From NCBI GenBank assembly GCA_001821435.1, contig MHLP01000007.1, positions 1,620 to 65,619 of the forward strand: 64,000 nt of DNA, written 5' to 3'. Shown in pieces: positions 5,421 through 55,717 of this stretch. The number at the start of each line of letters is the position of its first letter. Within the stretch, counting starts at the first letter, position 1. The DNA comes from Candidatus Lloydbacteria bacterium RIFCSPLOWO2_01_FULL_50_20. Lineage in GTDB: Bacteria > Patescibacteriota > Minisyncoccia > Phycocordibacterales > UBA6899. Below the pieces are notes generated by a model. It did not search any database and was not told where the DNA came from. It saw nothing but the letters and a program-made list of their open reading frames with translations. The translations under genes were made by a program, and so were the position numbers.

Positions 5421-5443
5421 TGTGTTATTCTTGAAAAACTCCG

Positions 5444-10616: not shown

Positions 10617-10677
10617 AACATGCCGCCAGGAAAATATGCCCCACGCCCGCGAGAGATGGATAGACAGGCGGCGTGTT

Positions 10678-11886
10678 TCACTCCAGCCGCCAATTTCCGT
10701 CGGCACGGATGTCCGCGATGTCCGTCGTTCCGGAGCTATAGCGGAGCGCTCCTCCGACGGCGATCATGAGCGCGTTATCGGTGGAGAGCGCATGATCAGG
10801 AATATACAAAGAAATTCCCGGAAGTTTCTCGGCAACAGCTTCCGCGAGCATTTTTCGCAGACGTTTATTTGCGGAGACGCCTCCTCCGAGTACGATGGTC
10901 TTTGCGCCGGTCACTTCTGCCGCACGCACTGTTTTTGCGATAAGCACTTCAATGCATGCTTCCTCGAATTCCCGCGCGATGTCCGCCTTTTGCGTCTCGG
11001 CGAGCAGTCCGATCTTTTTTATAAGATACAGCACCGCAGTTTTGAGTCCCGCAAAAGAGAAATCATGATCACTGGACTGAAGCATCGGACGAGGGAGAGC
11101 AAACTTGCCGGGTGTTCCTGTCTCACCTAGGCGCGATATTTCGGGGCCTCCGGGGTAAGGAAGACCAAGCATGCGTGCCACCTTGTCGAAAGCTTCACCC
11201 ACCGCATCGTCCCGTGTTTCGCCGATCACTTCGTATGCACCCCAGTCATGCATAAGCACAAGCTCCGTATGTCCGCCGGAAACCAAGAGTCCGAGTAGGG
11301 GGAATGTTGCCGGCGCAAATTTATACCGGACATCTTCTCGCTCATTCCGCTTTTTTTCGCGCGAAGATGTCTCCGGAGCGATCCTCGTCAGAAGCGGTGA
11401 GAGTAGGTGACCCTCCATGTGGTTGACGGGTATAACGGGAATTTTCCATATTAATGACAGCGCTTTGGCGAAATTGAGACCAACCCAAAGCGCAGGCTCA
11501 AGTCCCGGTCCTCGGGTCACCGCTATCGCATCAAAGGGCGGACGGTCGACGTGCGGGATCTCCGTAATGAATTGTGCGAATAATTCCGGCTCATGATCGA
11601 GAATATCCCGGAAATCTTTTCTGAGCGGACTTTCGATGACATGCCGGCTTGTTTTTTTATAGAATCCCGCATCTTGTAATGTTTTGATGAACAGCGGAAC
11701 GAGCGAGCGTGCATGTTCCCGTTTTGCCAGCATAGGGAATACTCCGCCGTACTCTTTGTGTACGGCGATCTGCGAAAGCGTGTTATCGGCGAGGACGCGA
11801 AAAGTGACCGATGGAAGAGTGCCGTCAGTTTCAATGATGGAGAGCGCAGTCTCGTCGCAAGATGTCTCTATGCTCAATATGAACAT
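10678..11886 (-). CDS. tsaD: tRNA N6-adenosine threonylcarbamoyltransferase TsaD (Kae1/Gcp family), with an insertion
   Basis: N-terminal MFILSIETSCDETALSI signature; HxxH-type metal motif (NHMEGHLLS); 402 aa. Confidence 0.85.
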   Translation of the reverse strand: MFILSIETSCDETALSIIETDGTLPSVTFRVLADNTLSQIAVHKEYGGVFPMLAKREHARSLVPLFIKTLQDAGFYKKTSRHVIESPLRKDFRDILDHEPELFAQFITEIPHVDRPPFDAIAVTRGPGLEPALWVGLNFAKALSLIWKIPVIPVNHMEGHLLSPLLTRIAPETSSREKKRNEREDVRYKFAPATFPLLGLLVSGGHTELVLMHDWGAYEVIGETRDDAVGEAFDKVARMLGLPYPGGPEISRLGETGTPGKFALPRPMLQSSDHDFSFAGLKTAVLYLIKKIGLLAETQKADIAREFEEACIEVLIAKTVRAAEVTGAKTIVLGGGVSANKRLRKMLAEAVAEKLPGISLYIPDHALSTDNALMIAVGGALRYSSGTTDIADIRADGNWRLE

Positions 11887-18400: not shown

Positions 18401-19255
18401 GATGCCGTCGTCCAACTCTCGTACCTAAATGCGAGATATTACGATATCACCCGAGGCCAATTTGCAAGTGAAGACCCACTAGTACAGAAGATCGGCCTTG
18501 ACCTCAAGGAAGTACAGCGGCTTCTTCTTGATCCACAGTTACAGAATTACTATTCTTATGCTCGCAATAATCCGATCAATTTAAGTGATCCGAGTGGAGA
18601 GGCAACCATCGGTCAGTTACTATCGCAGATCAGCGCGCTACTCACACAATTAAGTGCGGCTATAACGAAGCAATACTCTAGTACTGTGTCATCTGTTTCG
18701 AGCACCCTGCAAACAGTGAGTGCGGCAAGTACACAACAGGTATCGAAGGCAGTGAATACTGTTTACAACTTTCATGGTGGCGCAGGATTAACATTTGGCG
18801 GTGAGACTTCAGTTGGCGTACGGTCAGGAGGTGCTGGTGCTGGCGTCACTGCGCAACAATCCTACTCCTTTGGGGTTTTTAAGGACAAGGGATTCAAGTT
18901 CAGTATCGGCGGTTTTAAGAGTTACGGAAACGCATTTGCGGCAGGAGATACTGAAGTCACTTCTGCGGAATTGAATATGTGTCCTGTACTCACGGAACGA
19001 CCAGTTATATTTGGGCTTTCATACGGTGTTGGTGTCGGTGGCTTTGTTGCGCCTAACGCTGGCAGTGTTAATGATTTGTTGGGAACATCAAATTCAGTTT
19101 CTTATAATGCTCCATTTGGTAGCTTTCAATATTCCTTGGGAGAACAGCCGACGTATGCCTTGACCTACGGGCCACACCTATCAGGCGTAACCCCAGGCGC
19201 CTCGTACACTCAACTCCCTGTATCCAATGAACATTGGTTTAGTACTAGCCCTTAA
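15476..19255 (+). CDS. Secreted RHS/YD-repeat polymorphic toxin, 1259 aa: signal peptide, N-terminal and middle domains, a short YD-repeat block, an RHS repeat-associated core, and a Gly-rich C-terminal domain of unknown function
   Basis: YD repeats (YTYDAVGN, YAYDDLGN, YGYDAAGN); core ATYYPFGGKR and NARYYDITRGQFASEDP; canonical boundary YSYARNNPINLSDPSGE before the C-terminal domain (about aa 1046-1259). Confidence 0.8.
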   Translation: MEEHRGLFLFISTQRRQSAHLVALIVVSITLLIPTIAFAANNDPFRSGREAVNPKQSAGVGQSTGAMTYSYPLVIPPGRNGVQPNLSLNYSSDDKRPDSIFGYGWSMTLPYIERVNKLGTNNLYNQDTAHTFFTSSISGELLPVVNSTPIGGSFLGMILGASPLALLETSEESNTTQTQSEPTEQSASPAPDPTIVSDEIAQSFHTFADTFSTAFVYHPNEEGEWNSARERGTHDAKLGIPGFPVAGKSLSLVSVIPNPLTPALENLPATERATLKGEAIAQIGSIPKTLHGDYWIEVTAMNPIEGGVELFARAWDTNDDPIGFGQDGTVETERFRIFNPPILVDDPNGTIVRTWTDEITNEVKTRTLREDPVQAITETLLHTISLVGREDTQINAGSVGNTTDIFYPSTDGRAYRIPASETFATIRAGAGQGSPTGETSAAAVTLQASGTSNQYNVLTRGFFLFDTSPIGTDSISSSTLSLVASNTSFFDDFTDSVGVVAATTASDSDVANSDFEGTVGNTTRWATDRTIASLAHDDATYNSWTLNATGIAGINKTGITKIGLKSALDIDNTAPTWGSELASNVIFYFADNEGAGTTADPKLVVVHSAVPQGPTSLLLDDLTNPSNIATSSPYFSAIHANASTTALATSYQIQVDTAGTFTAPYWDSGKRTLSSSTPAGMRSPNIYATSTFALDGTTYYWRLRFYDQMGGVGDYSTATSTFRMRSASTVLQDLNYTYDAVGNIITIQDYSGNNAAASTTYTYDNLYRLTRASSTDAVLTNWLQTYAYDDLGNITSKSDVGSYTYAGTGWANPHAPTTVNGVTYGYDAAGNLTSAGAASYFWNYRNRLTDTNVNSTTTHYQYDHLDQRVQQDVKIGASATSSTIYWSKLFETKGATTTLYVFLPNGELLATVEGNGSATSTYIAHTDHQGSTNVMSDKNGNLAQLATYYPFGGKRNNELSSNGFQEKRGFIGQYEDAVVQLSYLNARYYDITRGQFASEDPLVQKIGLDLKEVQRLLLDPQLQNYYSYARNNPINLSDPSGEATIGQLLSQISALLTQLSAAITKQYSSTVSSVSSTLQTVSAASTQQVSKAVNTVYNFHGGAGLTFGGETSVGVRSGGAGAGVTAQQSYSFGVFKDKGFKFSIGGFKSYGNAFAAGDTEVTSAELNMCPVLTERPVIFGLSYGVGVGGFVAPNAGSVNDLLGTSNSVSYNAPFGSFQYSLGEQPTYALTYGPHLSGVTPGASYTQLPVSNEHWFSTSP

Positions 19256-19670: not shown

Positions 19671-19746
19671 CGCCCCCATGCTCCGCATCGCTGAAAAATT
19701 CCCACTCACCGAATCTCTTTGGAGCCGCTATCGCTCGCAACGAAAC

Positions 19747-19775
19747 GGGGACAGCCACCATTAATTGACTGATGG
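19747..19775. repeat. REP-like element (ggggacagccaccattaattgactgatgg)
   Basis: Shares the GGGGACAG core with the REPs flanking the RAYT gene at 48.5-49.3 kb; near-identical copy at 20070..20093. Confidence 0.55.
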
Positions 19776-19836
19776 TGTGGGGCAGAAATGGGGATAAGTC
19801 CGTTATTTAAATAAAATATGTGGTATTATATTCCCC

Positions 19837-20091
19837 ATGCCCAGACAAGCCAGAGTCGCCGTGGGGGATGTGGTCTATCATGTGATTAACCGCGCCAACG
19901 GCCGCGTGCGGATATTCCACTCCGACAAAGACTACCAACATTTTGAATCACTGCTTGAGGAAGCAAAAGAACTCACTGGTATGCGTATCCTCGCGTACGT
20001 GATCATGCCGAATCACTGGCATCTCGTGCTCTATCCAAGTCAAGACACTGATCTTTCTGGGGGGAAAATGGGGACAGCCACAATTGACTGA
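19837..20091 (+). pseudogene. Truncated HUH Y1 transposase (RAYT/IS200-like), N-terminal 84 aa only, lacking the catalytic Tyr
   Basis: Aligns with 48600..49232 (VYHVINRANGR..., HUH motif MPNHWHLVLYP) but stops before the YQGRY region; flanked by REP-like copies. Confidence 0.65.
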
Positions 20092-20093
20092 CC
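20070..20093. repeat. REP-like element (ggggacagccacaattgactgacc)
   Basis: Direct near-copy of 19747..19775. Confidence 0.55.
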
Positions 20094-20127
20094 TCTAAAA
20101 TAACGAGGTGAGGTTCCCAGAACCTGA

Positions 20128-20685
20128 TCACGGTCGATGAATCTCCTTAAGCAAGTCGGCAAGAACATCGCAGAACTGGTACCCGGTTTCGGGCGGCTTT
20201 CCGGTCGCCGCATCCACCGGCTTTCGGAGACTAGGCGGAAGTTCGATGTGATACGACGTCCACCTAGCGTCAGAAATCGTGACCGCCTTGCTCGCTTTGA
20301 ACTTCAATGTATCGTATTCACCACGAATCGCCAGCTTCTTGAGATCGTCTGCAGAAGAAGCAAACGCTCCCTCGAGCTTTCCAGCAAGTGCTTGAGAGAA
20401 CTTGTCGTTCACCGCGCTACCGGAGGAGATTTCCACCACATCGGAACCCGCTTTCTTTCCGCCGTGTCCGTGGATCTCCACTAACAGTCTCGGCTTCCAT
20501 TGGGCTATCTGTTCGGTGTAGTCGGTATCAGCGCGCTTGTTGACGTCGACGCGGTAGTTGCAGGCTATGACGCTGCAGCAGTCCAACCGTTCGGCAAGGT
20601 AGCGCCCGAGAAATCCGGCATTTTCGTCTGCGTCTTCATGTTCCGGACACGGCAGTTTCGGTGTGACCCTCCCCCCGAATTTCAT
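20128..20685 (-). CDS. Hypothetical protein (possible hydrolase; contains HGHGG)
   Basis: 185-aa ORF with no confidently recognised family; bracketed by REP-like elements. Confidence 0.35.
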   Translation of the reverse strand: MKFGGRVTPKLPCPEHEDADENAGFLGRYLAERLDCCSVIACNYRVDVNKRADTDYTEQIAQWKPRLLVEIHGHGGKKAGSDVVEISSGSAVNDKFSQALAGKLEGAFASSADDLKKLAIRGEYDTLKFKASKAVTISDARWTSYHIELPPSLRKPVDAATGKPPETGYQFCDVLADLLKEIHRP

Positions 20686-20733
20686 ACACCAATCTTGTAA
20701 TTATTCGTTAGAATAGTTGCATATGACGGTAAT

Positions 20734-20877
20734 GGGGACAGTCACGATTAAATAGCAAAGAGTATGGTCTAATATTTCCATTAATTCTCTTGCAATATGT
20801 TACGATAGCGGATAGCGAATGCGGTCGCACGCGAATAATTATGACACGTGTTTATGAAATCAATCGTGACTGTCCCC
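20734..20877. repeat. Pair of perfect 16-nt inverted REP-like repeats (ggggacagtcacgatt ... aatcgtgactgtcccc) enclosing about 112 nt (BIME/MITE-like)
   Basis: Read directly; same GGGGACAG core as the RAYT-flanking REPs. Confidence 0.6.
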
Positions 20878-22414
20878 ATTCTCCATTCTCCTCATTCTCC
20901 CGATGTTTTGCGGCGAGCGCTGCGGCGACGGTCCATGCCTGGATCTCCTGAGGAGGCTGCTCGATACGGTTCTTTACGCCACGTGATTCATCCCAGATGT
21001 CCACAATCCGTTCGTTCAATGTTGGTTCGGCATCGTCACCGCCTTGAGCAAATTCAGGAAACTTATTGAACTTACTGACGACCGCGAACATGCGCTCTTC
21101 GAGGTCGTCGGCCGCGGCAATATGCCCGTGTTTTCTTAGGCCGCATGCGATCATATATGAATCCCACAGCCACACGCTTCCATTGTGATATGCACCGGGC
21201 CGGAAACGGGGCTCATTTTTCGCAAGCGTCCGTATTCCGCTCGCAGAGAGCATAAGGGGAGACAAGAGTGTAGTGACGATCGCGGATCTTTTTTTGACGG
21301 TATCCAGGTCGTCGCCGATGAGCATGTCCGAAGAAAGCAGATGCCCCATGTTCGAGGTACGGATCGCAAGCTGACGGGGATTCCCTTGGCTGTCCCGGTC
21401 TGTTCCGAGGGCAAAAAAACTTTCTCCATTCTTCTCTTCGACCCACATTTCACTGAACACAGATGATCGCAATTTTTCCGCCCGCGATAGGAGGTCATCG
21501 GCGACCGAGGCGGCAAAACGTTCATCCCTCGGCATTTTTTCAAAGATCTTCCGATACAATTTACTTGCCGAGAGAAGCGCGTCATACGCATAACCTTGCA
21601 CCTCGACGGAAGCGATACCCCGCGCATGGTTCGCTATTGCACCGTCCGCGTGGAAATAGGAGTCGTTGGAGTCTTTCCATGCTTGGTTCAAAATGCCGTT
21701 CGGATTTGCGCGGCAAAATTCGACGAATCCTTGCGGGTTCGCGTCCATGCGTTTTTTGATCCAGTTCACTGCGCCGACAAGCGCGTCAAGAATTGTCCTC
21801 CTCTCTCCGTCTTTGTTCGTGAATATCCGTCCCAATATGCACCTGTTTTCTTGAGCGATGTATTCCGTGATCAGTTTCACGAAGAGCGGCGTCGTGTCGA
21901 CTGAGCCGTAATAGGGGAATTCCCAGCCGCGCTCCTCACGCAAAAATTTTCCGATCGCGGACCGATGATCGCGATATTCATGAAGGATGCGGCCAGGTTC
22001 TTCTTCGGCGTGAGACTCGTATCTCGTCCCCTGAAACTTCGCGAGCCGTATAATCGTCATCCGGGCAAGCAGAGGAAATTGCGGAAGAAGAAATGAAGAG
22101 ACGACAAGCGAGTCTCTTCCAAAAAATGCCGAAAAGAGATTTAGTTCCTCGACATCCTCGTTGGCTTCGGTGGCAAGTGCCGCGAAAGGCGGGCCGTGTT
22201 TTCCTATTTCACCGGGAGTCTTTGCGTGCGTCAGACGCATCAACTCCGTGAGTGCATCCGGTCGTTTTGTTGGTGTAACGATCAAAGGTTTTTCGACTGC
22301 GATGACCCGTTCGTTCGGAAGCAGGTAGGGGATAAGATCGGCAACTGCTTTCGTCAGATCGGTTTCTTCGGTAGCTGGTGTTTCATTCATGTTGCCGTGA
22401 GTTGATTGCGTCAA
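20852..22414 (-). CDS. Glycoside hydrolase with an (alpha/alpha)6-barrel, glycogen debranching enzyme/amylo-alpha-1,6-glucosidase-like
   Basis: 520 aa; GDE C-terminal-like motifs (NGSVWLWD, GYAYDA, acidic residues); family assignment from memory. Confidence 0.5.
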   Translation of the reverse strand: MTQSTHGNMNETPATEETDLTKAVADLIPYLLPNERVIAVEKPLIVTPTKRPDALTELMRLTHAKTPGEIGKHGPPFAALATEANEDVEELNLFSAFFGRDSLVVSSFLLPQFPLLARMTIIRLAKFQGTRYESHAEEEPGRILHEYRDHRSAIGKFLREERGWEFPYYGSVDTTPLFVKLITEYIAQENRCILGRIFTNKDGERRTILDALVGAVNWIKKRMDANPQGFVEFCRANPNGILNQAWKDSNDSYFHADGAIANHARGIASVEVQGYAYDALLSASKLYRKIFEKMPRDERFAASVADDLLSRAEKLRSSVFSEMWVEEKNGESFFALGTDRDSQGNPRQLAIRTSNMGHLLSSDMLIGDDLDTVKKRSAIVTTLLSPLMLSASGIRTLAKNEPRFRPGAYHNGSVWLWDSYMIACGLRKHGHIAAADDLEERMFAVVSKFNKFPEFAQGGDDAEPTLNERIVDIWDESRGVKNRIEQPPQEIQAWTVAAALAAKHRENEENGEWGQSRLIS

Positions 22415-45526: not shown

Positions 45527-48007
45527 ATGGCGAAAAACAAAGAACACAAAAAAGAAGAAGCAGCCGTCCCTGTCCCGCGTCCGACCGGCGTCATTCCGGC
45601 TAACATCGTGACGGAAATGCGCGAGAGCTACCTCGACTATGCCATGTCGGTCATCGTTGCGCGCGCGCTTCCCGATGTGCGGGACGGATTGAAACCGGTC
45701 CACCGCCGTATTCTCTATGCGATGCAGGAGGCGGGGCTCACTGCTTCCGCCCGGTTCAAAAAATCCGCGACGATCGTCGGTGACGTGCTTGGAAAATATC
45801 ATCCGCACGGGGATTCATCTGTTTATGACGCGATGGTCAAAATGGCTCAGGTTTTTTCAATGCGTTATCCGCTCGTCATCGGACAGGGAAACTTCGGTTC
45901 GATCGACGGGGATTCCGCTGCCGCTTATCGCTACACCGAAGCGAAAATGTCGCGCATCGCGGGCGAAGTGCTACAGGATCTCGAAAAAAATACGGTTGAG
46001 TGGGTGCCCAACTACGACGGCTCGCGCAAAGAGCCGACTGTTCTTCCCTCGGTTGTTCCCAATCTGCTCCTGAACGGCACGCTCGGTATCGCAGTCGGCA
46101 TGGCGACGAATATTCCTCCGCATAATTTGCGCGAGGTCGTCGACGCGCTCATGCACCTGATCGAGGATCCCAATGTGACAAGCGAAGACTTGCTCCAGTT
46201 TGTACAGGGACCGGACTTTCCGACGGGCGGCATCGCTTACAATAAGAGCGATATCCGTCATGCGTATGCTTCGGGGCGCGGCGGCGTCATCTGCCGCGGC
46301 GAAGCGGAGATCGTCGAGCCGAAAGCCGGGCATTCTGAGATCATCATCACGAGCATTCCGTACCGCGTGAACAAGGCCGACCTCTTGACCAAGATCGCGG
46401 AGCTCGTGCGCGAGAAAAAGATCGAAGGCATCAAAGACTTGCGCGATGAATCAGCAAAAGGCGATATCCGCATCGCGGTCTATCTCGGTTCGGGAGTTCC
46501 TCCGCAAAAGGTGCTTAATTATCTCTATCGACACACCGAGCTTGAGAGCGCGTATCACTACAACATGGTCGCGTTGGTCGACGGCGTTCCGCAGACGCTT
46601 TCGCTCAAGTCGCTCCTCGAGGAATTCATCAAACACCGCAAAACGGTCGTGAAGCGCCGTACCGAGTTCGAATTGAACAAAGCCAAAGACCGCGAGCATA
46701 TTCTGATCGGCCTCAAAAAAGCGCTCGATCATATCGATGCGATCATCAAAACTATCAAGGCGTCAAAAGATACGGCCGAGGCGCAGGTGAACCTGATGAA
46801 ACAGTTCAAGTTCTCCGATCGGCAAGCGGCTGCAATTTTGGAAATGAAACTCTCGCGCTTGGCAGGTCTTGAGCGCAAGAAAGTCGAGGATGAACTGAAA
46901 GTCGTACAGGCGCTCATCACAGAACTCGAGAGCGTACTTGGGAGCGTCAAAAAGATGATCGCCGTCATCAAGCAGGAATTACTCGCGGTCCGAGAGAAGT
47001 ACGGCGATGATCGTCGCACCAAGATCGTGAAGGGCGGCGTACAGACCATCTCTGTCGAAGATACGATCCCCGAGCGGGAAACTATCCTTGTTTTTACCGC
47101 GGGCGGCTATATCAAGCGCACCGATCCGTCGGAGTACCGTGTCCAGCGCAGGGGCGGAGTCGGCGTTGTCGATCTCGATACGAAAGAAGAAGATTTCGTG
47201 ACCATTTTTCTTTCCTGTTCGACGCACGAGGATATTCTCTTCTTCACTGACAAAGGCAAAGCGTATCAGATCAAAGCATACGAACTGCCGGAGGGGAGAC
47301 GTGCGACCAAGGGCAAGTCCATCCAAAATTATCTCGCGCTCGGCTCCGATGAACACGTGACCTCCATGCTTGCGATGCCGCGCGAGGTGAAAGAGGTCGC
47401 CAAGCTTTCGCTCCTCATGGTGACGGAGAAAGGCGTCGTGAAGAAAACTGCCGCAGATGCGTTCAAAGATGTGCGACGCTCGGGCTTGCTCGCAATTAAA
47501 CTCCATCCGAAAGACAAACTGCTCGCCGCACGCTTCGTTGAAGACAAAGACGACGTATCGCTGGTGACCTCGAAAGGCCAGTCGATCCGTTTCAAACAAA
47601 GCGACGTTCGCGAAATGGGACGCAACGCGGGGGGCGTGCGCGGCATGAAACTGCGCGCCGACGATCACATCGTGACGGCAGATGTTGTTCGCCATGTCTA
47701 TAGCAAACCGCTCTTGATCGTCATCAGCGAACAGGGTTACGGCAAAATGACGGATATGTCGGAATACAAGACGCAGGGGCGCGGCGGCTCAGGCATCAAG
47801 ACTGCGAATGTCACACCCAAGACCGGAAAAGTCGTTGCGGGCATGGTGCTCCCGGACCGCGAGGGGGAAATTGTCGCTATTTCAAAACAGAGTCAGGTTA
47901 TTCGTGTTTCTTTGAAAGAGATCGCGCTTTCGGGGCGTTCGACACAGGGTTCTCGAATTATGAGGCTTCGTCCAGGTGATAGTATAGCATCGTTAACAGC
48001 TCTGTAA
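45527..48007 (+). CDS. gyrA: DNA gyrase subunit A
   Basis: [29 protein letters not shown] with the active-site Tyr region; C-terminal beta-pinwheel repeats. Confidence 0.9.
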
Positions 48008-48032
48008 CTCTTCTCCTGTTGCTTGCCTCAAT

Positions 48033-48518
48033 ATGAATGAACATGAGAGATTTATGATGAAAGCGATAGAAGCTGCGCATGAGTCAGGGCACAGGAGCGA
48101 TTATCCTATCGGGACAGTCATCGTTAAAGATGGAGAGATAATTTCGAGTGGATACGAAACACTCAAATCGGCAAACGATCCTGTGAATGGCCACGCAGAA
48201 ATTGACGCTATTCGCAAAGCAACCCGGGAAATTTTGAAACAACCTTATCTTGAAGGTTGCACCCTTTACTCCACACACGAGCCTTGCCCGATGTGCGCCA
48301 CGGCCGCTTTTTGGTCAAAAATAAAAACTATTGTTTTTTCGGTTTCTCGGGAGGATATGATCGAACAAATGCCGAAAAGGGCATCCGGCAAGTTTTCGTG
48401 GAGACAGGTGGACATCTCATGCAAGGATGTTCTCGATCATGGCAGCGGGCATATGGTTGAACTTATTCCGAGCGTACTTCGCGAAGAAGGAATAAAACTT
48501 TTTGATTATACCGCTTAG
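48033..48518 (+). CDS. tadA: tRNA-specific adenosine deaminase / CMP-dCMP-type deaminase
   Basis: HAEIDAI and HEPCPMC zinc-binding motifs. Confidence 0.75.
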   Translation: MNEHERFMMKAIEAAHESGHRSDYPIGTVIVKDGEIISSGYETLKSANDPVNGHAEIDAIRKATREILKQPYLEGCTLYSTHEPCPMCATAAFWSKIKTIVFSVSREDMIEQMPKRASGKFSWRQVDISCKDVLDHGSGHMVELIPSVLREEGIKLFDYTA

Positions 48519-48540
48519 TTAAAAACGGTTTTAGGGTTTA

Positions 48541-48567
48541 GGGGACAGGTTTAGGGGACAGTCCCTC
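48541..48567. repeat. REP-like doublet upstream of the RAYT gene (ggggacagg ttta ggggacagtccc)
   Basis: Read directly; inverted counterpart at 49256..49285. Confidence 0.65.
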
Positions 48568-48599
48568 GAATAAGTAATTTATTGTGTTATAGTATTTTC

Positions 48600-49232
48600 A
48601 TGCCACGGCAACCACGCATCGCATTGGGGGGATATGTCTACCACGTGCTTAATCGTGCCAACGGCAGGGCGCGTATATTTCACACACCGGAAGCGTATAG
48701 GGAGTTTGAGCAGTTACTTTGTGAGGCGAATGAGCAATTTCACATGCGCATCCTTGCTTATACCCTTATGCCCAACCACTGGCATCTACTCCTTTATCCG
48801 CGAGAAGACACGGATATGCCCGACTTTGTGCGCTGGCTCTCTACGACGCACGCGGCAAAATTCCGCAACAAAACCAAGACAGTCGGCGAAGGCCATCTCT
48901 ACCAAGGGAGATACAAATCTTTTGTCATGGACACTGATACACATCTCCTCACTGTTTTGAAATACATTGAACGCAATCCAGTGCGGGCAAAACTTGTTGT
49001 ACATCCTGAGGATTGGGAATGGGGAAGTGCATACCGCAGAATATGCGGGACAAAAAAGGCACAAGCGTTACTTGCGGTCTCGCCAACGCCACTCCCGCAT
49101 CATTATCGTGCGTGGATCAACGGTGCGGAAAAATCTGAAGAACTCGATGAACTTCGCAAATCCGTCAATAAGGGTATCCCGTTTGGGGCGGAAGAATTTC
49201 TCTACCGTTTTGATCGAGGCAAGAAAAAATAA
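48600..49232 (+). CDS. HUH Y1 transposase, REP-associated tyrosine transposase (RAYT)/IS200-like TnpA, full length
   Basis: HUH motif LMPNHWHLLLYP, catalytic Tyr region LYQGRYKSF; flanked on both sides by inverted GGGGACAG REP doublets. Confidence 0.8.
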   Translation: MPRQPRIALGGYVYHVLNRANGRARIFHTPEAYREFEQLLCEANEQFHMRILAYTLMPNHWHLLLYPREDTDMPDFVRWLSTTHAAKFRNKTKTVGEGHLYQGRYKSFVMDTDTHLLTVLKYIERNPVRAKLVVHPEDWEWGSAYRRICGTKKAQALLAVSPTPLPHHYRAWINGAEKSEELDELRKSVNKGIPFGAEEFLYRFDRGKKK

Positions 49233-49255
49233 TAACATGTTTGTAAACTTTTTGG

Positions 49256-49285
49256 AGGGACTGTCCCCCAATTCCTGTCCCCCAA
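49256..49285. repeat. REP-like doublet downstream of the RAYT gene, inverted relative to 48541..48567 (gggactgtccccc aattcc tgtccccc)
   Basis: Its reverse complement, gggggacagg aatt gggggacagtccc, matches the upstream doublet. Confidence 0.65.
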
Positions 49286-49319
49286 TTCCAATTCTAATTC
49301 CCAGGTCAATACGGGTTTT

Positions 49320-49544
49320 ATGCTCGAAGTCATCAAAGAAAGCAAATTTAAGGCGACATTGCTTTCCGTGCGGTCTCAGGTTAATGAATTCGTGAGTGCG
49401 CTTGCAAGCTACGGCCTTGGACTTGCTATCGGCTATTTTTCATACCGGACGGGATTCGTTCTTTTGGCGGTAGGTTATCTTCTCTTGGCATTTCCTATTT
49501 ACTTTTTTATCCTTCGCGGTGGGCGATCTCCGGGCAGGCGATAA
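49320..49544 (+). CDS. Hypothetical small membrane protein
   Basis: 74 aa, two hydrophobic helices. Confidence 0.3.
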   Translation: MLEVIKESKFKATLLSVRSQVNEFVSALASYGLGLAIGYFSYRTGFVLLAVGYLLLAFPIYFFILRGGRSPGRR

Positions 49545-49605
49545 GATTTGCGCTTGTGCAAATAAAAAAACGGCGGATGAGCGTCCCGTCGTTTTGTTTT
49601 GCGTA

Positions 49606-49779
49606 TTATTCTTTCTTTTCGTCTTTTTCCCACACCACGAGTGTGAGACAGAATGCTCCGATCGTCAGCATTGTTGCCCCCAGTCCGTTCAGTATGCCGT
49701 GTGAACGGAACAGATAGGCGAGTCCGATGATGCCCGCCCAGATCGCAACAGTGGCGACGGCTTTCCCGATCTCTTTCAT
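49606..49779 (-). CDS. Unlisted small membrane protein (57 aa, below the ORF-track cutoff): MKEIGKAVATVAIWAGIIGLAYLFRSHGILNGLGATMLTIGAFCLTLVVWEKDEKKE
   Basis: Hand translation of the minus strand; two TM helices; terminator-like hairpin downstream. Confidence 0.3.
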   Translation of the reverse strand: MKEIGKAVATVAIWAGIIGLAYLFRSHGILNGLGATMLTIGAFCLTLVVWEKDEKKE

Positions 49780-49807
49780 TGTTGTCTTTCTCTGTCGGTT
49801 CTAACCG

Positions 49808-50050
49808 TTAGATCTTTACTTCGAGCTTTTTCATGAGTTCGGTAACGGCGCTTTGTATCGCCATCACCGGGTCGGTGCGCAGGAACACGCGGGGTTTTCT
49901 GGTCGTGTCGCTGGCGAAACGTGCGGATACTCGGTGAAAACCGCCTTCCTCGGACGACAGGGTGAGTGTAATGACGATGCCGCATTTTACCGCACTCTCG
50001 ATCGCCGCGTTGATGGCGAACTGTTTCGTACCTTCCATGATGCTCTCCAA
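49808..50050 (-). CDS. Hypothetical small protein
   Basis: 80-aa ORF, no confident motif. Confidence 0.3.
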   Translation of the reverse strand: MESIMEGTKQFAINAAIESAVKCGIVITLTLSSEEGGFHRVSARFASDTTRKPRVFLRTDPVMAIQSAVTELMKKLEVKI

Positions 50051-50192
50051 ATGATTATGAACGGGCCTTTCTCTTACTTTTGTCTACCATAGTCCCGCAG
50101 CCTGTAAAGGGTGCTGTAGTGAAGAGGGCATTACGAGACAACTGGGGATTCTGCGGTTCTCGCTTTAGAGCTCATGGTGCTATACTGAAAGC

Positions 50193-50759
50193 ATGTTTTC
50201 CGTTCCCGAAAAAAACGTCGAGGAGCTGCACCTTGCTCCCAATCAGACCGTTGCCGATTTCGGCACCGGAAGCGGCGCGTATGCTATCGCGGCGGCAAAA
50301 GCGATGCGTGGCACGGGAAAAGTCTATGCCGTCGATGTCCAGAAAGGCATTCTCACGCGGCTCGAAAATACCTGCAAAGAATATGGTCTGGGGAACATCT
50401 CCTTTATCTGGGGCGACCTGGAAAAGCCGGAGGGGACGCGGTTGCGCAATGATTCTTGCGATGCGGTGATCCTCTCGAATGTCCTCTCGCAGGCCTCTGA
50501 TAAAAAGGCGGTCATAGACGAAGTCAGGCGTGTCCTGCATCCGGGCGGAATATTGCTGCTCATAGACTGGACTGCATCATTCAATAATATGGGCCCCGTG
50601 AAGGAGCAGGTATTTCCGGAAGCGGAAAGTCGGAAACTCACCGAAGGATCCGGATTTCTTTTCGACCGCTCGATCAACGCGGGGAATTACCATTATGGGC
50701 TCGTCATGAGAAAAGTGATCTCCGCGGCTGCAAAAAAAGAAGAACACATTCACGCATAA
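50193..50759 (+). CDS. Class I SAM-dependent methyltransferase
   Basis: Motif I VADFGTGSGAYAI; motif post-I KVYAVDV; LHPGGILLLIDW. Confidence 0.75.
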   Translation: MFSVPEKNVEELHLAPNQTVADFGTGSGAYAIAAAKAMRGTGKVYAVDVQKGILTRLENTCKEYGLGNISFIWGDLEKPEGTRLRNDSCDAVILSNVLSQASDKKAVIDEVRRVLHPGGILLLIDWTASFNNMGPVKEQVFPEAESRKLTEGSGFLFDRSINAGNYHYGLVMRKVISAAAKKEEHIHA

Positions 50760-50769
50760 GCATATCCAT

Positions 50770-52098
50770 ATGAAATTTCAAACCATACTCCTTGCGATCT
50801 TCGGTGTCGTAGCGGTTGTCGCAGTCGTTATATTTTCGGTCGTTCCGGTAAAAAATAGTTCAAAGAACCAGGGAACGGTCGGTGCGGTGGGCGGCGTGAC
50901 GATCTGGGGAACTTTCCCGTCGACGAGAGAGCTGCTCAAGGTCTTCGAGATATTCAATGCCGGATATAAAGACAGTTTTGCGGTGAATTATGAATTTCAC
51001 GATCCCGCCGTTTTTGACAATGACATTGTCGAGGCGCTTGCCTCGGGGCGCGGTCCCGATATTCTTCTTCTTCCCGACGATCTCGTGCTTCGCCATTCCG
51101 ACAAGATCGAGCTTATTTCGTATCAATCCGTACCGCAGGTCGTCTTTCAGTCGAATTTCATTCAGGCGGCGGAGATCTACATGCGCGACAAAGGGCTGAT
51201 CGCGCTTCCGTTCGCGATCGATCCGATGGTCATGTATTGGAATCGCGATCTGTTCAACAACGCCTCACTTACCGAACCGCCGCGTTACTGGGACGAGCTC
51301 TTGACGATGACGCCGAAATTGACGAAACGCGATCCGCAGACTTCCGATATCGTACAGAGCGCTGTCTCGTTCGGAGAATACGAGAATGTGCTTTTTGCAA
51401 AGGATATTCTTGCCATGCTTTTCCTTCAGGTGGGGAACCCGCTGGTAGCCGTTCAGGATGGAAAACCCTACTCGAAGATCGTTACATCGAACGGGAAGGA
51501 AAATGTTCCTGCGCAGAATATCGTCTCTGCGTTCCGCTTCTACATGGACTTTTCGAACCCCCAAAAGCCGAATTATACCTGGGGACGCGCGCGCCAAAAC
51601 TCGCGCGACGAATTCATCAACGGGAATCTCGCGATCTATTTCGATTATGCGAGCGCATACAAGCCTATCCAGGAGAAAAATCCGCATCTGAATTTCGCCG
51701 TTGCGCAGGTACCGCTTCCGCGCGGCACTAACGCGGAGATCACCTTCACCAAAGTGTACGGGCTCTCGGTGCTTAAATCTTCGCGGAACAAACAGACGGC
51801 TTTTGTTGCCGTACAGCACCTGCTCACAGATCCGTTGCCGGAAAGAAGTTTTGCGTCCGCTTTCGATCTTCCCCCCGTTATCCGGTCTTATCTGGCTCAG
51901 CCACCGACAGACTCAGCGCTTGCGGTATTCTATGATGCGGCGATCCGCGGCAGAACGTGGCTCGATCCGAAGCCTGAAGTGAGCAACAAGGCGTTCCGGA
52001 GAATGGTCGAGTCGGTTGCCTCCGGGCGGAATGACGTGAGCATTGCGATCGCCATACTTCACGGGGATATGGTTGCCGCACTCGCCCCATATCAATAA
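50770..52098 (+). CDS. Membrane-anchored extracellular solute-binding-protein-like protein (SBP family 1-like), no cognate permease nearby
   Basis: N-terminal TM/signal anchor; 442 aa with a periplasmic-binding-protein-like pattern; family call from memory, medium-low certainty. Confidence 0.4.
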   Translation: MKFQTILLAIFGVVAVVAVVIFSVVPVKNSSKNQGTVGAVGGVTIWGTFPSTRELLKVFEIFNAGYKDSFAVNYEFHDPAVFDNDIVEALASGRGPDILLLPDDLVLRHSDKIELISYQSVPQVVFQSNFIQAAEIYMRDKGLIALPFAIDPMVMYWNRDLFNNASLTEPPRYWDELLTMTPKLTKRDPQTSDIVQSAVSFGEYENVLFAKDILAMLFLQVGNPLVAVQDGKPYSKIVTSNGKENVPAQNIVSAFRFYMDFSNPQKPNYTWGRARQNSRDEFINGNLAIYFDYASAYKPIQEKNPHLNFAVAQVPLPRGTNAEITFTKVYGLSVLKSSRNKQTAFVAVQHLLTDPLPERSFASAFDLPPVIRSYLAQPPTDSALAVFYDAAIRGRTWLDPKPEVSNKAFRRMVESVASGRNDVSIAIAILHGDMVAALAPYQ

Positions 52099-52107
52099 TC
52101 TTTTGCC

Positions 52108-52527
52108 ATGAAAAAAAATTTACATTTCATTCTCCCGATGATCTTCATGCTTATGGTGTTCTCACTTCCTCTTGTTGTATCTGCGCAAGGACAATGGAGA
52201 GGCATTGTCGTGTGTGGTAATACGAGCGGCGGAAATCAAGGCCTTGATAGTCAGCCGTGTACTTTTAATGACATCATCAATCAGGTAAAAGTAGTGATCG
52301 ACTTCGCGCTTTTCAAGATCGCCGCCCCGCTTGCCGCCGTCATGTTCGCCTACGCGGGATTTCTCTATGTGACCAACCGCGGAAATGAATCGCAGATCAA
52401 GCAGGCACACGAGATCTTCTGGAACGTCTTCATCGGTCTGGTCATCGCGCTTGCCGCATGGCTCACCATGAATTTCATCCTTACTTTTTTCCTCGGTCAA
52501 GACTCGGCGTTCAATTTCTTAAGATGA
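52108..52527 (+). CDS. Pilin-like paralog 1 (VirB2/TrbC-like, T4SS-pilin-like): signal peptide ending VVSA|Q then two hydrophobic helices
   Basis: Signal peptide with A-Q junction; shared two-helix architecture with the eight following paralogs. Confidence 0.5.
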   Translation: MKKNLHFILPMIFMLMVFSLPLVVSAQGQWRGIVVCGNTSGGNQGLDSQPCTFNDIINQVKVVIDFALFKIAAPLAAVMFAYAGFLYVTNRGNESQIKQAHEIFWNVFIGLVIALAAWLTMNFILTFFLGQDSAFNFLR

Positions 52528-52568
52528 CCTTTTGCTCATACACTATCTTTCGCAGTAGTATTTGCTCT

Positions 52569-52931
52569 ATGTCCAAACAAAGTTTTTTTTCAAATGTTTC
52601 AGCGTTCATCCTCTTGTTTAGCGGTTGGGCCGTTGTTGCTCATGCGCAGACGTCAATGTACCAAAATCCGATTACCTACGGCGGTATTCGGACGATACCC
52701 GATCTTCTTATTGCCATCGTCGATCTGGTCTTTTTGATCGCCGTTCCCATTATCGTTATCTTTATCATCTATTCAGGATTTCTTTTTGTGACTTCAGGAG
52801 ACAATGAAGCCAATATCAAGAAAGCGAAGACGGTGTTCATGTGGACGGTTGTCGGGGCGCTCGTATTGCTCGGCGCCAAGGCGATCTCCGCGGCGATACA
52901 GAGTACTATTTTAAGTCTTGGCGCGACATGA
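52569..52931 (+). CDS. Pilin-like paralog 2 (signal peptide ending AHA|Q)
   Basis: Start refined to MSKQSFF at 52569; same two-helix architecture. Confidence 0.5.
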   Translation: MSKQSFFSNVSAFILLFSGWAVVAHAQTSMYQNPITYGGIRTIPDLLIAIVDLVFLIAVPIIVIFIIYSGFLFVTSGDNEANIKKAKTVFMWTVVGALVLLGAKAISAAIQSTILSLGAT

Positions 52932-53299
52932 TCATTAATACAATAAAAAAATATCGCGTACTTCCATTTGTCGCCTCGACCGTGGTTTTGCTTTTTCCCG
53001 CAATTGTTTTTGCACAGCTCCCGCAGCCGACGGTGACGCTTTCCAATCCCGCTCCCGGTGCGGGATCAACACTTCAGGATTTCGTTTATCTGCTTATTGA
53101 GATCATCCAGTGGGTGGCGCTTCCCATCTTGGCTCTCTGTATCATCCATGCTGGATTTATCCTTGTTTCCGCCGGCGGCAATGAAGAAAAGATCACCAAG
53201 GGGAAGCTCTGGGTCATCTGGACCTTGGTCGGAGCGGCGATCATTCTCGGTTCTCGCGTCGTTGCCAATATCATTTTTGGTACGGCAAGCGTATTTTAA
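52928..53299 (+). CDS. Pilin-like paralog 3 (signal peptide ending VFA|Q)
   Basis: Start MIINTIKK at 52928 (ATGA overlap with paralog 2); same architecture. Confidence 0.5.
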   Translation: MIINTIKKYRVLPFVASTVVLLFPAIVFAQLPQPTVTLSNPAPGAGSTLQDFVYLLIEIIQWVALPILALCIIHAGFILVSAGGNEEKITKGKLWVIWTLVGAAIILGSRVVANIIFGTASVF

Positions 53300-53305
53300 C
53301 CATAT

Positions 53306-53674
53306 ATGATCTCACGATATAAAAAATTTCGGCAAATACTCCTCACGATCGCGGCTCTTTTCATGCCCGTTATCGCGTTTGCACAGGCGCCGACAAATTT
53401 CAGGGAGTTTGCCTCGCTTGTTGTCAGAATGCTCCAGAGCGTTATTGCCGTTCTTTTCGTGTCGCTTGCCGTCGGCCTCGTGTTTGGCGTGGTGTTGTTC
53501 TTGGCGAATGCCGATAACGAAAAAAAGCGCATGGAGATCAAGGGATATCTGCTTTGGGGTGTTATCGGTATCATCGTGGTTATGGGTATCTGGGGTATTC
53601 TTGAGACACTCAGTGTCAGTGTCTTCGGTCCCGGTGCTGTCGGCATTCCGCAGTTGAGGCCTCCCGCATTATGA
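53306..53674 (+). CDS. Pilin-like paralog 4 (signal peptide ending AFA|Q)
   Basis: Same architecture; conserved GxxLWGxIG segment. Confidence 0.5.
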   Translation: MISRYKKFRQILLTIAALFMPVIAFAQAPTNFREFASLVVRMLQSVIAVLFVSLAVGLVFGVVLFLANADNEKKRMEIKGYLLWGVIGIIVVMGIWGILETLSVSVFGPGAVGIPQLRPPAL

Positions 53675-54042
53675 AATACAGACATCTTACCTTGATCCAG
53701 TCGGGCGCCCTGTTTTTCGCTTTCCCGTTTATCGGCTCTGCGCAGGTGAATGACGTTTTTGGGCTTGCGACGCTGGCCTATAACATCCTCGTACGGCTCG
53801 GTTCGCTCTTCTGGATATTAGCAGTGATGCTTTTTGTGTGGGGGATCGTCAAATTCATCGGCAATGCCGGCGACTCGGCTGCGCATGCAGAGGGAAAGAA
53901 ATTCATTGTCTGGGGACTCATTGCTTTTGTGGTGCTGACGTCACTTTGGGGCATTGTGAACTTGGTTCTCTCAGACACATTCAACATCACCCCGGGAGGA
54001 CAGGTGCAATATGTCGATAAAACCGGCAATATCGTCAATTAG
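53671..54042 (+). CDS. Pilin-like paralog 5 (signal peptide ending GSA|Q)
   Basis: Same architecture; ATGA overlap with paralog 4. Confidence 0.5.
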   Translation: MKYRHLTLIQSGALFFAFPFIGSAQVNDVFGLATLAYNILVRLGSLFWILAVMLFVWGIVKFIGNAGDSAAHAEGKKFIVWGLIAFVVLTSLWGIVNLVLSDTFNITPGGQVQYVDKTGNIVN

Positions 54043-54288
54043 CCGATTTTTTGCTGGTCACAGTCTTACTATTGGTGATTAGAAAAATGGCCTTAAATAA
54101 GGATTTTTTTGTGTTCATGCCAATTAGTTTACATGGCGGCCTAGTTGAGATCAACAAAAAGTCCGTTTTTGAGTAATCCACAGAGCCTTGCGAATAATCA
54201 TTGCCCCAATTCAACAAGTGGGCTATTATAAATTTATTGTTTTATAGGAGGTTGTTTGCAATTTTATTAACTTATTTTTCATTTAAAT

Positions 54289-54642
54289 ATGAAGAAAATT
54301 ATTACTGGTGCTCTGTTTCTCGGCCCGATGACGGCTTTCGCGCAGGGAACACCTCTCCTGAATACGGTAAATCAGATCAGTCAGATCGTGGGTCTTTTGA
54401 TCCCACTCCTTCTGGCGGTTGCGGTTCTTCTCTTTTTCTGGGGATTGGTCAAGTTCATTGCCAATGCTTCTGACGAGGCGGCAAAAGAGTCAGGCAAAAC
54501 CCTGATGATCTGGGGTATGATCGCCATCTTCGTCATGGTCGCTTTCTGGGGGATCATCGGTTATGTTCAGCAGTCGCTTGGTGTCACGGGTAGCGTTACG
54601 ACCACCGCACCGCCTGTCGTGAATGTTGTCCCTGCATCCTAA
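54289..54642 (+). CDS. Pilin-like paralog 6 (signal peptide ending AFA|Q; C-terminal tail ...TTAPPVVNVVPAS)
   Basis: LFFWGLVKFIANASDEAAKESGKTLMIWGMIAIFVMVAFWGIIGYVQ core; own AT-rich promoter region upstream. Confidence 0.55.
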   Translation: MKKIITGALFLGPMTAFAQGTPLLNTVNQISQIVGLLIPLLLAVAVLLFFWGLVKFIANASDEAAKESGKTLMIWGMIAIFVMVAFWGIIGYVQQSLGVTGSVTTTAPPVVNVVPAS

Positions 54643-54653
54643 TTTATCTGAAC

Positions 54654-54953
54654 ATGTTTACTCCTTTTGGAAACACGCTGAGTATCATCAGTTACTATGT
54701 CAGCTTATTGGTTCCGCTCCTTCTGGCGGTTGCGATTGTACTCTTTTTCTGGGGACTGGTCAAGTTTATCGCCAATGCTTCTGACGAGGCGGCAAGGGAA
54801 TCCGGCAAAAATCTGATGATCTGGGGTATGATCGCCATCTTCGTCATGGTCGCCTTCTGGAGTATCATCGGCTACGTTCAGTCATCGCTTGGCGTCAGCG
54901 GGAATATCAATACCGGTTCTGCTCCGACAGTGAGCATTGTGCCGATGACGTAA
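54654..54953 (+). CDS. Pilin-like paralog 7 (no signal peptide; about 90% identical core to paralog 6; tail ...GSAPTVSIVPMT)
   Basis: LFFWGLVKFIANASDEAARESGKNLMIWGMIAIFVMVAFWSIIGYVQ. Confidence 0.5.
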   Translation: MFTPFGNTLSIISYYVSLLVPLLLAVAIVLFFWGLVKFIANASDEAARESGKNLMIWGMIAIFVMVAFWSIIGYVQSSLGVSGNINTGSAPTVSIVPMT

Positions 54954-55107
54954 TTACCGTTATTGCCGATATACAAAAATCCGTCCGTTAGGGGCGGATT
55001 TTTGCTTGTCCGAATAGAGAACCGTTGTCATTCTTTAATTCTTTTAAGAGGAGTTTTCCCCCTATGTTTTTTGTTCGGCAATACTTTCTTGCTATACTGC
55101 ATACATA

Positions 55108-55422
55108 ATGAATATATTACTTCCGAACATCGCGCATGCGCAGACTAGGCCGCCCGACTCCGTTCTTGTTTTGGTGGGAAAAATCTCCACAGAGATATTG
55201 AATCCGATCATCGCCATTATGTTTTCGCTTGCGCTGGCGTATTTTATCTATGGCGTTGCGGCCTACCTCTGGAATCCCGAAAATGAAGAAGCGCGGACAA
55301 CGGGAAAAAGAGGAATGCTCTGGGGTGTGATCGGCATGTTTATCATGGTTTCGGTCTTCGGCATTATGCAGTTTCTTATCAGATCCATCGGTGCCGATCC
55401 TAATCTGATGAAGTATGTCTAA
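55108..55422 (+). CDS. Pilin-like paralog 8 (signal-like N-terminus ending AHA|Q)
   Basis: Same two-helix architecture (MLWGVIGMFIMVSVFGIMQF). Confidence 0.45.
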   Translation: MNILLPNIAHAQTRPPDSVLVLVGKISTEILNPIIAIMFSLALAYFIYGVAAYLWNPENEEARTTGKRGMLWGVIGMFIMVSVFGIMQFLIRSIGADPNLMKYV

Positions 55423-55717
55423 CGGAATACTCGGAGTCATTGATATTGTCATCGCCCTCATATCTGCGATCATACCTGTCTTAGTCGGTTTTGCGGTTGT
55501 GGTTTTTTTCTGGGGAGTGGTCAAGTTTATCGCTCATTCCGGCGATGAAAAGGCTCTTCAGGAAGGGAAACAGCTGATGATCTGGGGAATGATCGGCATC
55601 TTCGTTATTGTTGCGCTCTGGTCTGTGGTCGGCTATATACAGATGTCACTTGGCCTCAATCTTGTAACTCCTTCGCGAACGGCACCGTCCGCACCGACGG
55701 TCATTCCCGCGATCTGA
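55415..55717 (+). CDS. Pilin-like paralog 9 (no signal peptide; tail ...TAPSAPTVIPAI)
   Basis: VVFFWGVVKFIAHSGDEKALQEGKQLMIWGMIGIFVIVALWSVVGYIQ closely parallels paralogs 6 and 7. Confidence 0.5.
   Translation: MSNGILGVIDIVIALISAIIPVLVGFAVVVFFWGVVKFIAHSGDEKALQEGKQLMIWGMIGIFVIVALWSVVGYIQMSLGLNLVTPSRTAPSAPTVIPAI

Follow-up and report, generated by a model that had tools for sequence, protein, structure and literature searches.

The window analysed here, a 64-kb stretch of a Candidatus Lloydbacteria genome, carries an intact gene for a 210-aa Y1 HUH nuclease/transposase that lies between terminal inverted repeats (TIRs). We consider it very probable that this unit is a TIRtron, that is, a TIRYT gene bounded by TIRs whose palindromic core fits GGGGWSAS (Table 1). 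Both names come from Di Nocera, De Gregorio & Rocco (2013) (BMC Genomics 14:522, PMC3733652), who described genes resembling those of REP-associated tyrosine transposases (RAYTs) that are bordered by terminal inverted repeats, not by repetitive extragenic palindromes (REPs), and who found GGGGWSAS to be common to many of these TIRs.

The two flanks of the gene form a 25-nt inverted repeat with 88% complementarity (arms 48551-48575 and 49247-49271). This agrees with the initial annotation, which was made from the letters alone and which had placed inverted palindromes around a transposase gene; the palindrome doublets that it saw on either side are also present, as the tandem units listed in Table 1. 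The core is itself palindromic, as had been claimed, since GGGACAGTCCC is an odd-length palindrome with A/T at its centre. The repeat core as a whole is an imperfect palindrome around a CAG centre (GGGGACAG followed by TCCCTC). GGGGACAG occurs at both ends of the gene and matches the published TIRYT consensus GGGGWSAS. The bases 5′ of the palindromes are TTTAG and AATTG, and neither palindrome carries a GTAG or GTGG tag.

A scan for sigma-70 promoters and terminators upstream of the TIRYT gene called nothing. By eye, we identified an extended -10-like box close to the start codon, which the scan missed because no -35 element is present. The equivalent position in homologues reads TATAAT or TAGAAT. 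The box suggests a candidate promoter inside the left end of the element, and the TIRYT mRNA would likely be leaderless. A deaminase gene and a 74-aa open reading frame (ORF) without a Pfam match are the neighbours of the TIRYT gene. An Rfam search of the whole window yielded tRNAs only, with no RNA family at either of the two TIRYT loci that it contains.

Table 1. Features of the intact TIRYT element and of the second, decayed locus (window positions)
Feature	Positions	Strand	Remarks
Probable TIRtron	48535-49288		Y1 HUH gene between ~25-40-nt terminal inverted repeats
TIRYT gene, 210 aa	48600-49232	+	Intact ORF; Y1 HUH nuclease/transposase
Left terminal inverted repeat	48535-48575	+	Half-site doublet, then complete palindrome; fits GGGGWSAS
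Left doublet, two 13-nt half-site units GGTTTAGGGGACA in tandem	48535-48560	+	Continues into GTCCCTC (to 48567)
Left complete palindrome GGGGACAGTCCCTC	48554-48567	+	
Extended -10-like box TGTTATAGT (TGnTATAGT)	48585-48593	+	Last base 6 nt upstream of ATG; read by eye
Right terminal inverted repeat	49247-49288	-	Palindrome, then doublet
Right palindrome GAGGGACTGTCCCC	49255-49268	-	
Right doublet, 14-nt unit CTGTCCCCCAATTC twice in tandem	49261-49288	-	
Left TIR AACGGGGACAGCCACCATTAATT of decayed TIRYT element	19744-19766	+	Subtype AATGGGGACAGYCACNATT, commonest in Patescibacteria; near-identical to left arm of related locus L117
Truncated TIRYT paralogue	19837-20091	+	Homology over residues 1-73/74; 66% identity to intact copy
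Extra left-end-type TIR copy AATGGGGACAGCCACAATT	20067-20085	+	At truncation point; orientation as at 19744
Gene-less mini-element, 150 bp	20731-20880		Perfect 19-bp TIRs AATGGGGACAGTCACGATT ... AATCGTGACTGTCCCCATT

The protein matched the Pfam family Y1_Tnp with 67.8 bits (cut-off 23), and its ORF is intact, as expected of the full-length Y1 transposase that had been called. The HUH motif MPNHWHLLLYP was also placed correctly and comprises H60-W61-H62 (nt 48777-48785). The catalytic tyrosine, however, does not lie in LYQGRYKSF, where the initial annotation had put it. Alignment to the TnpA protein of ISDra2 and to E. coli TnpA-REP (PDB 4er8) assigns this role to Y122 (nt 48963-48965), within LKYIERNPV. 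In a phmmer comparison, LKY(122)IE of the query paired with QKY(132)IE of ISDra2 TnpA, of which PDB 2xo6 is the Y132F mutant, while a profile built from 25 sequences aligned KYIERNPVRAKLV...W to DYIYINPVKHGWV...W of 4er8. H60-W61-H62 and Y122 correspond in the alignments to residues that are catalytic in 2xm3 and 4er8; Y122, H60 and H62 are invariant, Y122 across 25 homologues. The same tyrosine is labelled as catalytic in the alignment of Di Nocera et al. (2013) (PMC3733652). As for LYQGRYKSF, its counterpart in the E. coli RAYT (4er8) was the 'IWQPRFWE' strand.

Several results put the protein, within the Y1 superfamily, on the RAYT side and apart from ordinary IS200 TnpA, a distinction that the earlier reading had drawn correctly. 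Its tyrosine motif, Y122-I-E-R-N126-P127, is the Y-x-x-x-N-P of class 2 (TnpA-REP-like) enzymes, whereas IS200 transposases have Y-x-x-x-Q (Quentin, Siguier, Chandler & Fichant, 2018; PMC6006769). The best NCBIfam match was REP_Tyr_transpos (NF047646), at 74.9 bits and under the equivalog cut-off of 80; the IS200 model (NF033573) reached 24.4 bits, its cut-off being 55. An AlphaFold model of the protein (pLDDT 81.6, pTM 0.81) had the E. coli RAYT (4er8) as its top structural match (E 1e-7, TM 0.69 on target), followed by the TnpA proteins of ISDra2, IS608 and IS200. No TnpB partner gene lies beside the TIRYT gene. Thus, although the protein shares the Y1 HUH fold of IS200/IS605 TnpA (IS608, ISDra2), it differs from these enzymes in motif, in model score and in the missing tnpB, with which they are frequently partnered, as well as in ~85 extra C-terminal residues and in length, 210 aa compared with ~150 aa for core-only enzymes. 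The element ends differ too, being inverted copies of one sequence, whereas IS200/IS605 elements have distinct subterminal hairpins at their left and right ends.

Within the RAYT side, the nearest relatives are published TIRYTs. Using the reference sequences printed in Additional file 5 of Di Nocera et al. (2013), full-length blastp alignments gave 44.5% identity to R. baltica rba2408 (RB2408; E 1e-60), 42.9% to Geobacter gbm2474 and 40.1% to Desulforudis dau2153 (E 1e-60 to 1e-51 for the three), while the RAYTs of E. coli (eco b228) and P. fluorescens (pfs 3939) were 21-22% identical (E 1e-5 to 1e-6). Because the protein is 40-44% identical to published TIRYTs compared with 21% to RAYTs, and because the repeats match the TIRYT consensus, given by Quentin et al. 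(2018) as GGGG[AT][CG]A[CG] (PMC6006769), we identify the gene as a TIRYT. The element is very probably a TIRtron and would accordingly fall into TnpAY1 subclass 2.1 and into Group 1 of Bertels, Gallie & Rainey (2017), which corresponds to that subclass (PMC5581495); Quentin et al. (2018) equate TIRYTs with subclass 2.1, where they place 20 of 26 of them and for which they found no REPs (PMC6006769).

Comparison with these classes reveals both agreement and departures. As in the TIRtrons described in 2013, the GGGGWSAS repeats (here GGGGACAG) lie at comparable distances from the gene, are partly self-complementary, at times form dimers or clusters, and are present in few copies. Unlike those, the element described here resides in Candidatus Lloydbacteria (Patescibacteria, or candidate phyla radiation), a host outside the coverage of that paper, and its ends have tandem half-site doublets. 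Features shared with subclass 2.1 and Group 1 are the Y-x-x-x-NP motif, an N-H-aromatic-H HUH motif, the lack of canonical REPs, and few diverged paralogues per genome with occasional near-identical duplicates; the departures are NHWH in place of the NHVH or NH[YF]H given by Quentin et al., and YQ in place of W[EQ] or FQ. A literature search combining RAYT with the candidate phyla radiation returned no relevant paper. The TIRYT class is already known, but its presence in Patescibacteria is not described in the searchable literature.

Both Candidatus Lloydbacteria RIFCSPHIGHO2_02_FULL (GCA_001821385.1) and several metagenomes from groundwater contain the exact protein, always in the order gyrA - deaminase - TIRYT - 74-aa ORF. 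More widely, a protein search returned >5,500 homologues, and a scan of genome contigs (one genome per species) gave at least 581 relatives, of which the top match was 70% identical; the source genome was not among the matches listed. The best 80 of these relatives were nearly all from Patescibacteria (Lloyd-, Kaiser-, Adler-, Nomura- and Yonath-bacteria, Paceibacterota), with one from Phycisphaerae.

We surveyed layout and repeats in 84 related loci, almost all from Patescibacteria; loci and contigs outside the window are denoted here by L numbers. Inverted palindromes bracket the gene in a 90%-identical orthologue (L011) and in relatives with 74% (L015) and 61% (L017) identity, the last with GGGGTCAGACCCCTC in place of GGGGACAGTCCCTC. 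A GGGGWSAS-type motif was present on at least one side in 80 of the 84 loci and on both sides in 48 by a strict count, with an exact fit in 82 of 128 arms of relatives. Inverted repeats of 14-45 nt occurred at most loci, and most of L104-L183 have the layout of L011, L015 and L017. The CAG centre has a median position ~40 nt upstream of the ATG and ~35 nt downstream of the stop codon. The commonest arm is AATGGGGACAG[C/T/G]CAC[C/G/A]ATT; variants such as AATGGTGTCAGGTACCATT, GGGGTCAGACCCC, CGTGCCAGGCACG and AACGGTGTCTGACACCGTT are all palindromic around a nearly invariant C-A-G.

The halves of the palindrome covary. In 123 arms, considering an 8-bp stem around CAG, 74.7% of stem cells were paired, compared with 62.4% in shuffles and at most 52.8% in controls in which the stem was slid. 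Two-sided changes were found in 110 cells where 54 were expected, and the covariation score was 0.296 compared with 0.143 in shuffles, none of 500 of which scored as high. Examples of covarying stems are GGGAC/GTCCC, GGGGTC/GACCCC, CGTGC/GCACG and AATGGTGT/GTACCATT.

The second TIRYT locus of the window (19.7-20.9 kb) is decayed. Homology of the truncated paralogue to the intact copy stops just past the HUH motif, after which the ORF continues into a TIR copy and then reaches a stop codon; tblastn found no remainder of the paralogue in the window. The ends of the gene-less mini-element resemble those of full elements (compare L128 and L122), including -10-like boxes (TATGGTCTAAT and TGTCATAAT). 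The mini-element is a deletion derivative that resembles a REPIN or a miniature inverted-repeat transposable element, and derivatives of this sort could give rise to REPIN-like repeats. A 520-aa glycoside-hydrolase-like ORF (20852-22414, minus strand; Pfam MGH1-like_GH/GDE_C) takes its final 8 codons (WGQSRLIS) and its stop codon from the right TIR of the mini-element. Between the TIR copies at 20067 and 20731 lies a 185-aa ORF without a Pfam match (20128-20685, minus strand), which is either cargo or a bystander, and a 1259-aa ORF without an assigned family (15476-19255) lies just upstream of the decayed locus. Downstream of the intact locus, about eight small T4SS_pilin (PF18895) genes form an array within ~52100-55700.

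GGGGACAG occurs nine times in the window compared with 0.98 expected, and none of 100 shuffles reached nine. Four copies are at the intact locus and four at 19747-20877. The ninth, at 8819 within a long ORF, looks like chance, and there is no copy in any other intergenic region of the window. When the 10 kb on either side of each of the 84 loci (~1.2 Mb in all) were searched with the locus's own 12-mer, allowing at most one mismatch, almost no copies were found beyond the two flanks, the exception being L126, which has whole duplicated elements. A metagenome scan for the 20-mer GGGGACAGTCCCTCSAAWAA returned 16 stretches, with the window's own contigs not among them; a TIRYT gene was present in only one, and ~11 were solo copies in differing contexts. 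Two of these solo copies (L189 and L200) and the sister-species locus were found in one and the same metagenome. Orphan ends thus exist at low density, which matches remarks of Di Nocera et al. (2013), who called TIR families only 'moderately abundant' in some organisms (PMC3733652), and of Bertels et al. (2017). A scan of viral contigs for GGGGACAGTCCCTC gave 81 matches, mostly single and none with a TIRYT gene.

Some of the contigs that these scans returned have arrangements of their own. An rpiB-like gene in L189 (Ga0209541_10097789) is preceded by a solo TIR end, GGGGACAGTCCCTCCAAAAA followed by a TATAAT-like sequence, which lies ~27 nt before its ATG (~200-260 on the minus strand). Because this spacing equals that before TIRYT genes, the promoter of the solo end may have been co-opted for the rpiB-like gene. 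Each of the two TIR subtypes is present as an intergenic solo copy in L187 (Ga0155242_130; 4060-4085 and 5406-5441), one as AATGGGGACAGTCACGATT and one as the doublet GGAATAGGGGACAGGAGGAATAGGGGACAGTCCCTCC, and no TIRYT gene was detected in that contig. Two metagenome stretches with GC ~0.6 (L197, 1300-1430; L201, ~200) hold a 33-nt tandem array of GGGGACAGTCCCTCCAAAAATGGGGAAAACCGC with at least four units and the same 20-mer; an inverted copy is found at the end of the array, and there is no TIRYT gene in the stretch. In two IMG/VR viral contigs (L039, 3483-3560 and 8356-8420; L061, 947-1000 and 1863-1920), REPIN-like inverted pairs are built on a GGGGACAGTCCC core, and such pairs, for example GGGGACAGTCCCTCTAGCCCCTTAAAGGGACTGTCCCC, are repeated in GC-rich contigs without a TIRYT gene.

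These counts bear on whether the locus is instead a classical RAYT/REP unit (REPtron), in which a domesticated single-copy RAYT would be flanked by palindromes drawn from a dispersed, high-copy REP/REPIN family. The initial annotation had called the arrangement "exactly" that of a RAYT, and its RAYT-like protein and inverted flanking palindromes stand. The REP_Tyr_transpos and 4er8 matches, the ninefold presence of the motif in the window, the REPIN-like inverted pair at 20731-20880, the solo copies in stretches without a TIRYT gene and the viral pairs on the same core are all what a REPtron would lead one to expect. The catalytic helix of E. coli TnpA-REP, which serves the REP-BIME system (4er8; Messing et al., 2012; Ton-Hoang et al., 2012), also reads YIxxNPV followed by W, and inverted palindromes bracket its gene too. 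However, the NCBIfam score falls short of the equivalog cut-off, identity to canonical RAYTs is 21% compared with 44% to TIRYTs, and eight of the nine window copies lie at the two TIRYT loci. E. coli REPs are 20-40-nt hairpins with a GT[AG]G tag and hundreds of dispersed copies, whereas the window palindrome is ~11-19 nt long, has a CAG centre, is untagged and, in the window, is essentially restricted to TIRYT elements and their remnants. In the flanks of the 84 relatives, too, extra copies are rare save where whole elements were duplicated, and the literature has no REPs for the subclass, the flanking 16-mers of Group 1 numbering ~12 occurrences per replicon (Bertels et al., 2017; PMC5581495). 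We therefore regard a REPtron as unlikely.

The element reads as a TIRtron that is settled at its site. All 21-23 contigs that contain the exact protein or the neighbouring deaminase have a single context and identical doublets. A search for an empty site by way of the deaminase found the element in 23 of 23 contigs, and there was no doublet polymorphism in 10 assemblies. In a sister species (window 45527-52098 compared with L011 1-5709), the order gyrA ... TIRYT ... methyltransferase-SBP is kept although gyrA has diverged to 91% protein and 79% nucleotide identity. The TIRYT nucleotide identity, TIRs included, is 87.8%, and dN/dS, the ratio of nonsynonymous to synonymous divergence, is 0.12 for the gene. 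Between gyrA and the element, the window has the deaminase gene, while L011 has a 183-aa and a 58-aa ORF. We conclude that the element at the window locus is not currently hopping, but is fixed, syntenic and under purifying selection.

The family, in contrast, retains the capacity to move. Within-genome paralogues are mostly 52-72% identical, but the paralogues L167 and L170 are 94% identical, and at ten loci another copy, or a fragment of one, lies no more than 10 kb away. Within 17 kb, L126 (CAZWKU010000002.1; positions 2880-3690, 9950-10810, 13324 and 16663) holds at least two full elements that are ~98% identical and whose identity stops exactly at AATGGGGACAG and CTGTCCCCATT. The same contig has two left-end-only copies that have a common, different downstream sequence, as well as a right end tandemly duplicated by ~97 nt, and it stops just past a further left end. 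No target-site duplication was visible at the L126 copies, a trait shared with IS200/IS605 elements. Since these ~98%-identical copies comprise the whole unit, the TIRYT family is still mobilisable as a unit, leaving solo ends, truncated copies and gene-less mini-elements.

Could the locus itself be one recent insertion of an autonomous insertion sequence (IS), a TIR-bounded relative of IS200/IS605 that is still transposing in the source genome? The copies in L126, L167, L170 and at the ten loci show what such an IS would produce, as do the truncated copy and the mini-element in the window, and the synonymous divergence (dS) of the TIRYT gene between sister species is below that of flanking genes. 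Nevertheless, the one context in contigs from several samples, the failure to find an empty site, the conserved position beside a gyrA of only 79% nucleotide identity, the low dN/dS and the 52-72% identity of most paralogues speak against a recent insertion, and the IS200 model score, the absence of Y-x-x-x-Q and the lack of tnpB set the protein apart from such an IS. This makes a currently transposing IS quite improbable.

Several points weigh against the TIRtron reading or narrow it. The sister-species dS of 0.44 for TIRYT is far under the 1.65 of gyrA, and the methyltransferase and SBP genes are saturated. Because TIRYT dS is lower than gyrA dS, the common ancestor of the TIRYT copies is more recent than that of the flanking genes, and simple co-divergent vertical descent is not the whole story; recombination, replacement or site-specific re-insertion could account for the low value. 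At 210 aa, the protein is shorter than most of its relatives (223-225 aa) and ends without their distal ...GRPKK tail. Pfam did not detect in it the C-terminal helix-turn-helix (HTH) of subclass 2.1, and even a lenient search (E <= 10) found no Bac_DnaA_C, HTH_23 or HTH_28 match in the window protein, in P0081 or in rba2408, although HMMER filters may hide weak matches; residues 143-209 of the AlphaFold model form short helices only. The u position of its HUH motif is W, which is outside the residues that Quentin et al. give for class 2, though TIRYT rba2408 has it as well. For the repeats, folding of single-stranded DNA predicts hairpins of low stability (-1 to -6 kcal/mol, z -0.2 to -2.3) that are not clearly above shuffles, so we argue for structure from covariation; the arms in that test were picked partly by best pairing, which gives a slight bias toward structure, and a double-stranded palindromic binding site would fit the covariation equally well. 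Finally, the searched literature contains no biochemistry for any TIRYT.

That the palindromes bind a regulatory protein, as an operator or terminator controlling expression of the gene or of those beside it, and are unrelated to DNA breakage and joining, is highly improbable: they do lie 26-40 nt upstream of the ATG beside the -10-like box, which the inverted repeat spans in L015, L128 and L142, a solo copy sits at the same distance before the rpiB-like gene of L189, and the hairpins are thermodynamically weak, but in 48 loci or more the gene has inverted copies to its left and right, identity between duplicated elements stops exactly at the repeats, the same repeats bound a gene-less mini-element, and the repeats are strictly tied to a nuclease/transposase family.

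The half-site doublets are a trait of the family and may offer a clue to where the nuclease acts. At least two same-orientation half-sites within 40 nt were found at 30 of 141 ends, from 24 of the 84 loci. In at least ten ends, the complete palindrome follows an exact tandem duplicate that comprises 6-9 nt of the outside flank and the left half up to CAG. Such precise end duplications are present in L109, at the left and right ends of L116, in L128, L133, L146, L149, L164 and L182, and at both ends in the window. The duplication junction is always at the palindrome centre, right after CAG, which hints at breakage and joining 3′ of CAG.

By analogy to IS608 and ISDra2 TnpA and to E. coli TnpA-REP, the protein would bind the palindrome at either end of the element, where single-stranded DNA would probably form a small hairpin. 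With the HUH-bound metal and Tyr122, it would then cleave the DNA to form a 5′-phosphotyrosine link, followed by rejoining. The recurrent half-site duplications suggest that cutting and joining would occur at the palindrome centre, directly 3′ of CAG, and the reaction would leave no target-site duplication. Both the chemistry and the site of cleavage are put forward on these grounds, as what we infer from related enzymes and from the duplications.

A broader reading is that TIRYTs may form an unrecognised IS-like family, still occasionally active and widespread throughout Patescibacteria. The nuclease would then cut and rejoin at the CAG centre, the half-sites made of flank plus GGGGACAG would be its footprints, and the -10 promoter within the ends could be co-opted when these persist as solo remnants, as perhaps before the rpiB-like gene of L189. 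We offer this as a tentative proposal that we consider rather unlikely.

As a single locus, the element is of modest weight, being a mobile-element relic for which the label TIRtron/TIRYT already exists. The class to which it belongs, however, is very common in bacteria of the candidate phyla radiation, and its terminal repeat is an imperfect palindrome with an almost invariant CAG centre and covarying stems. Duplications that break after CAG provide a concrete, testable guess at the cleavage site of an uncharacterised family of HUH nucleases. Recognising the class could aid the annotation of genes that are now labelled merely 'transposase' or 'hypothetical', and could aid studies of how REP-like repeats originate from transposon ends.

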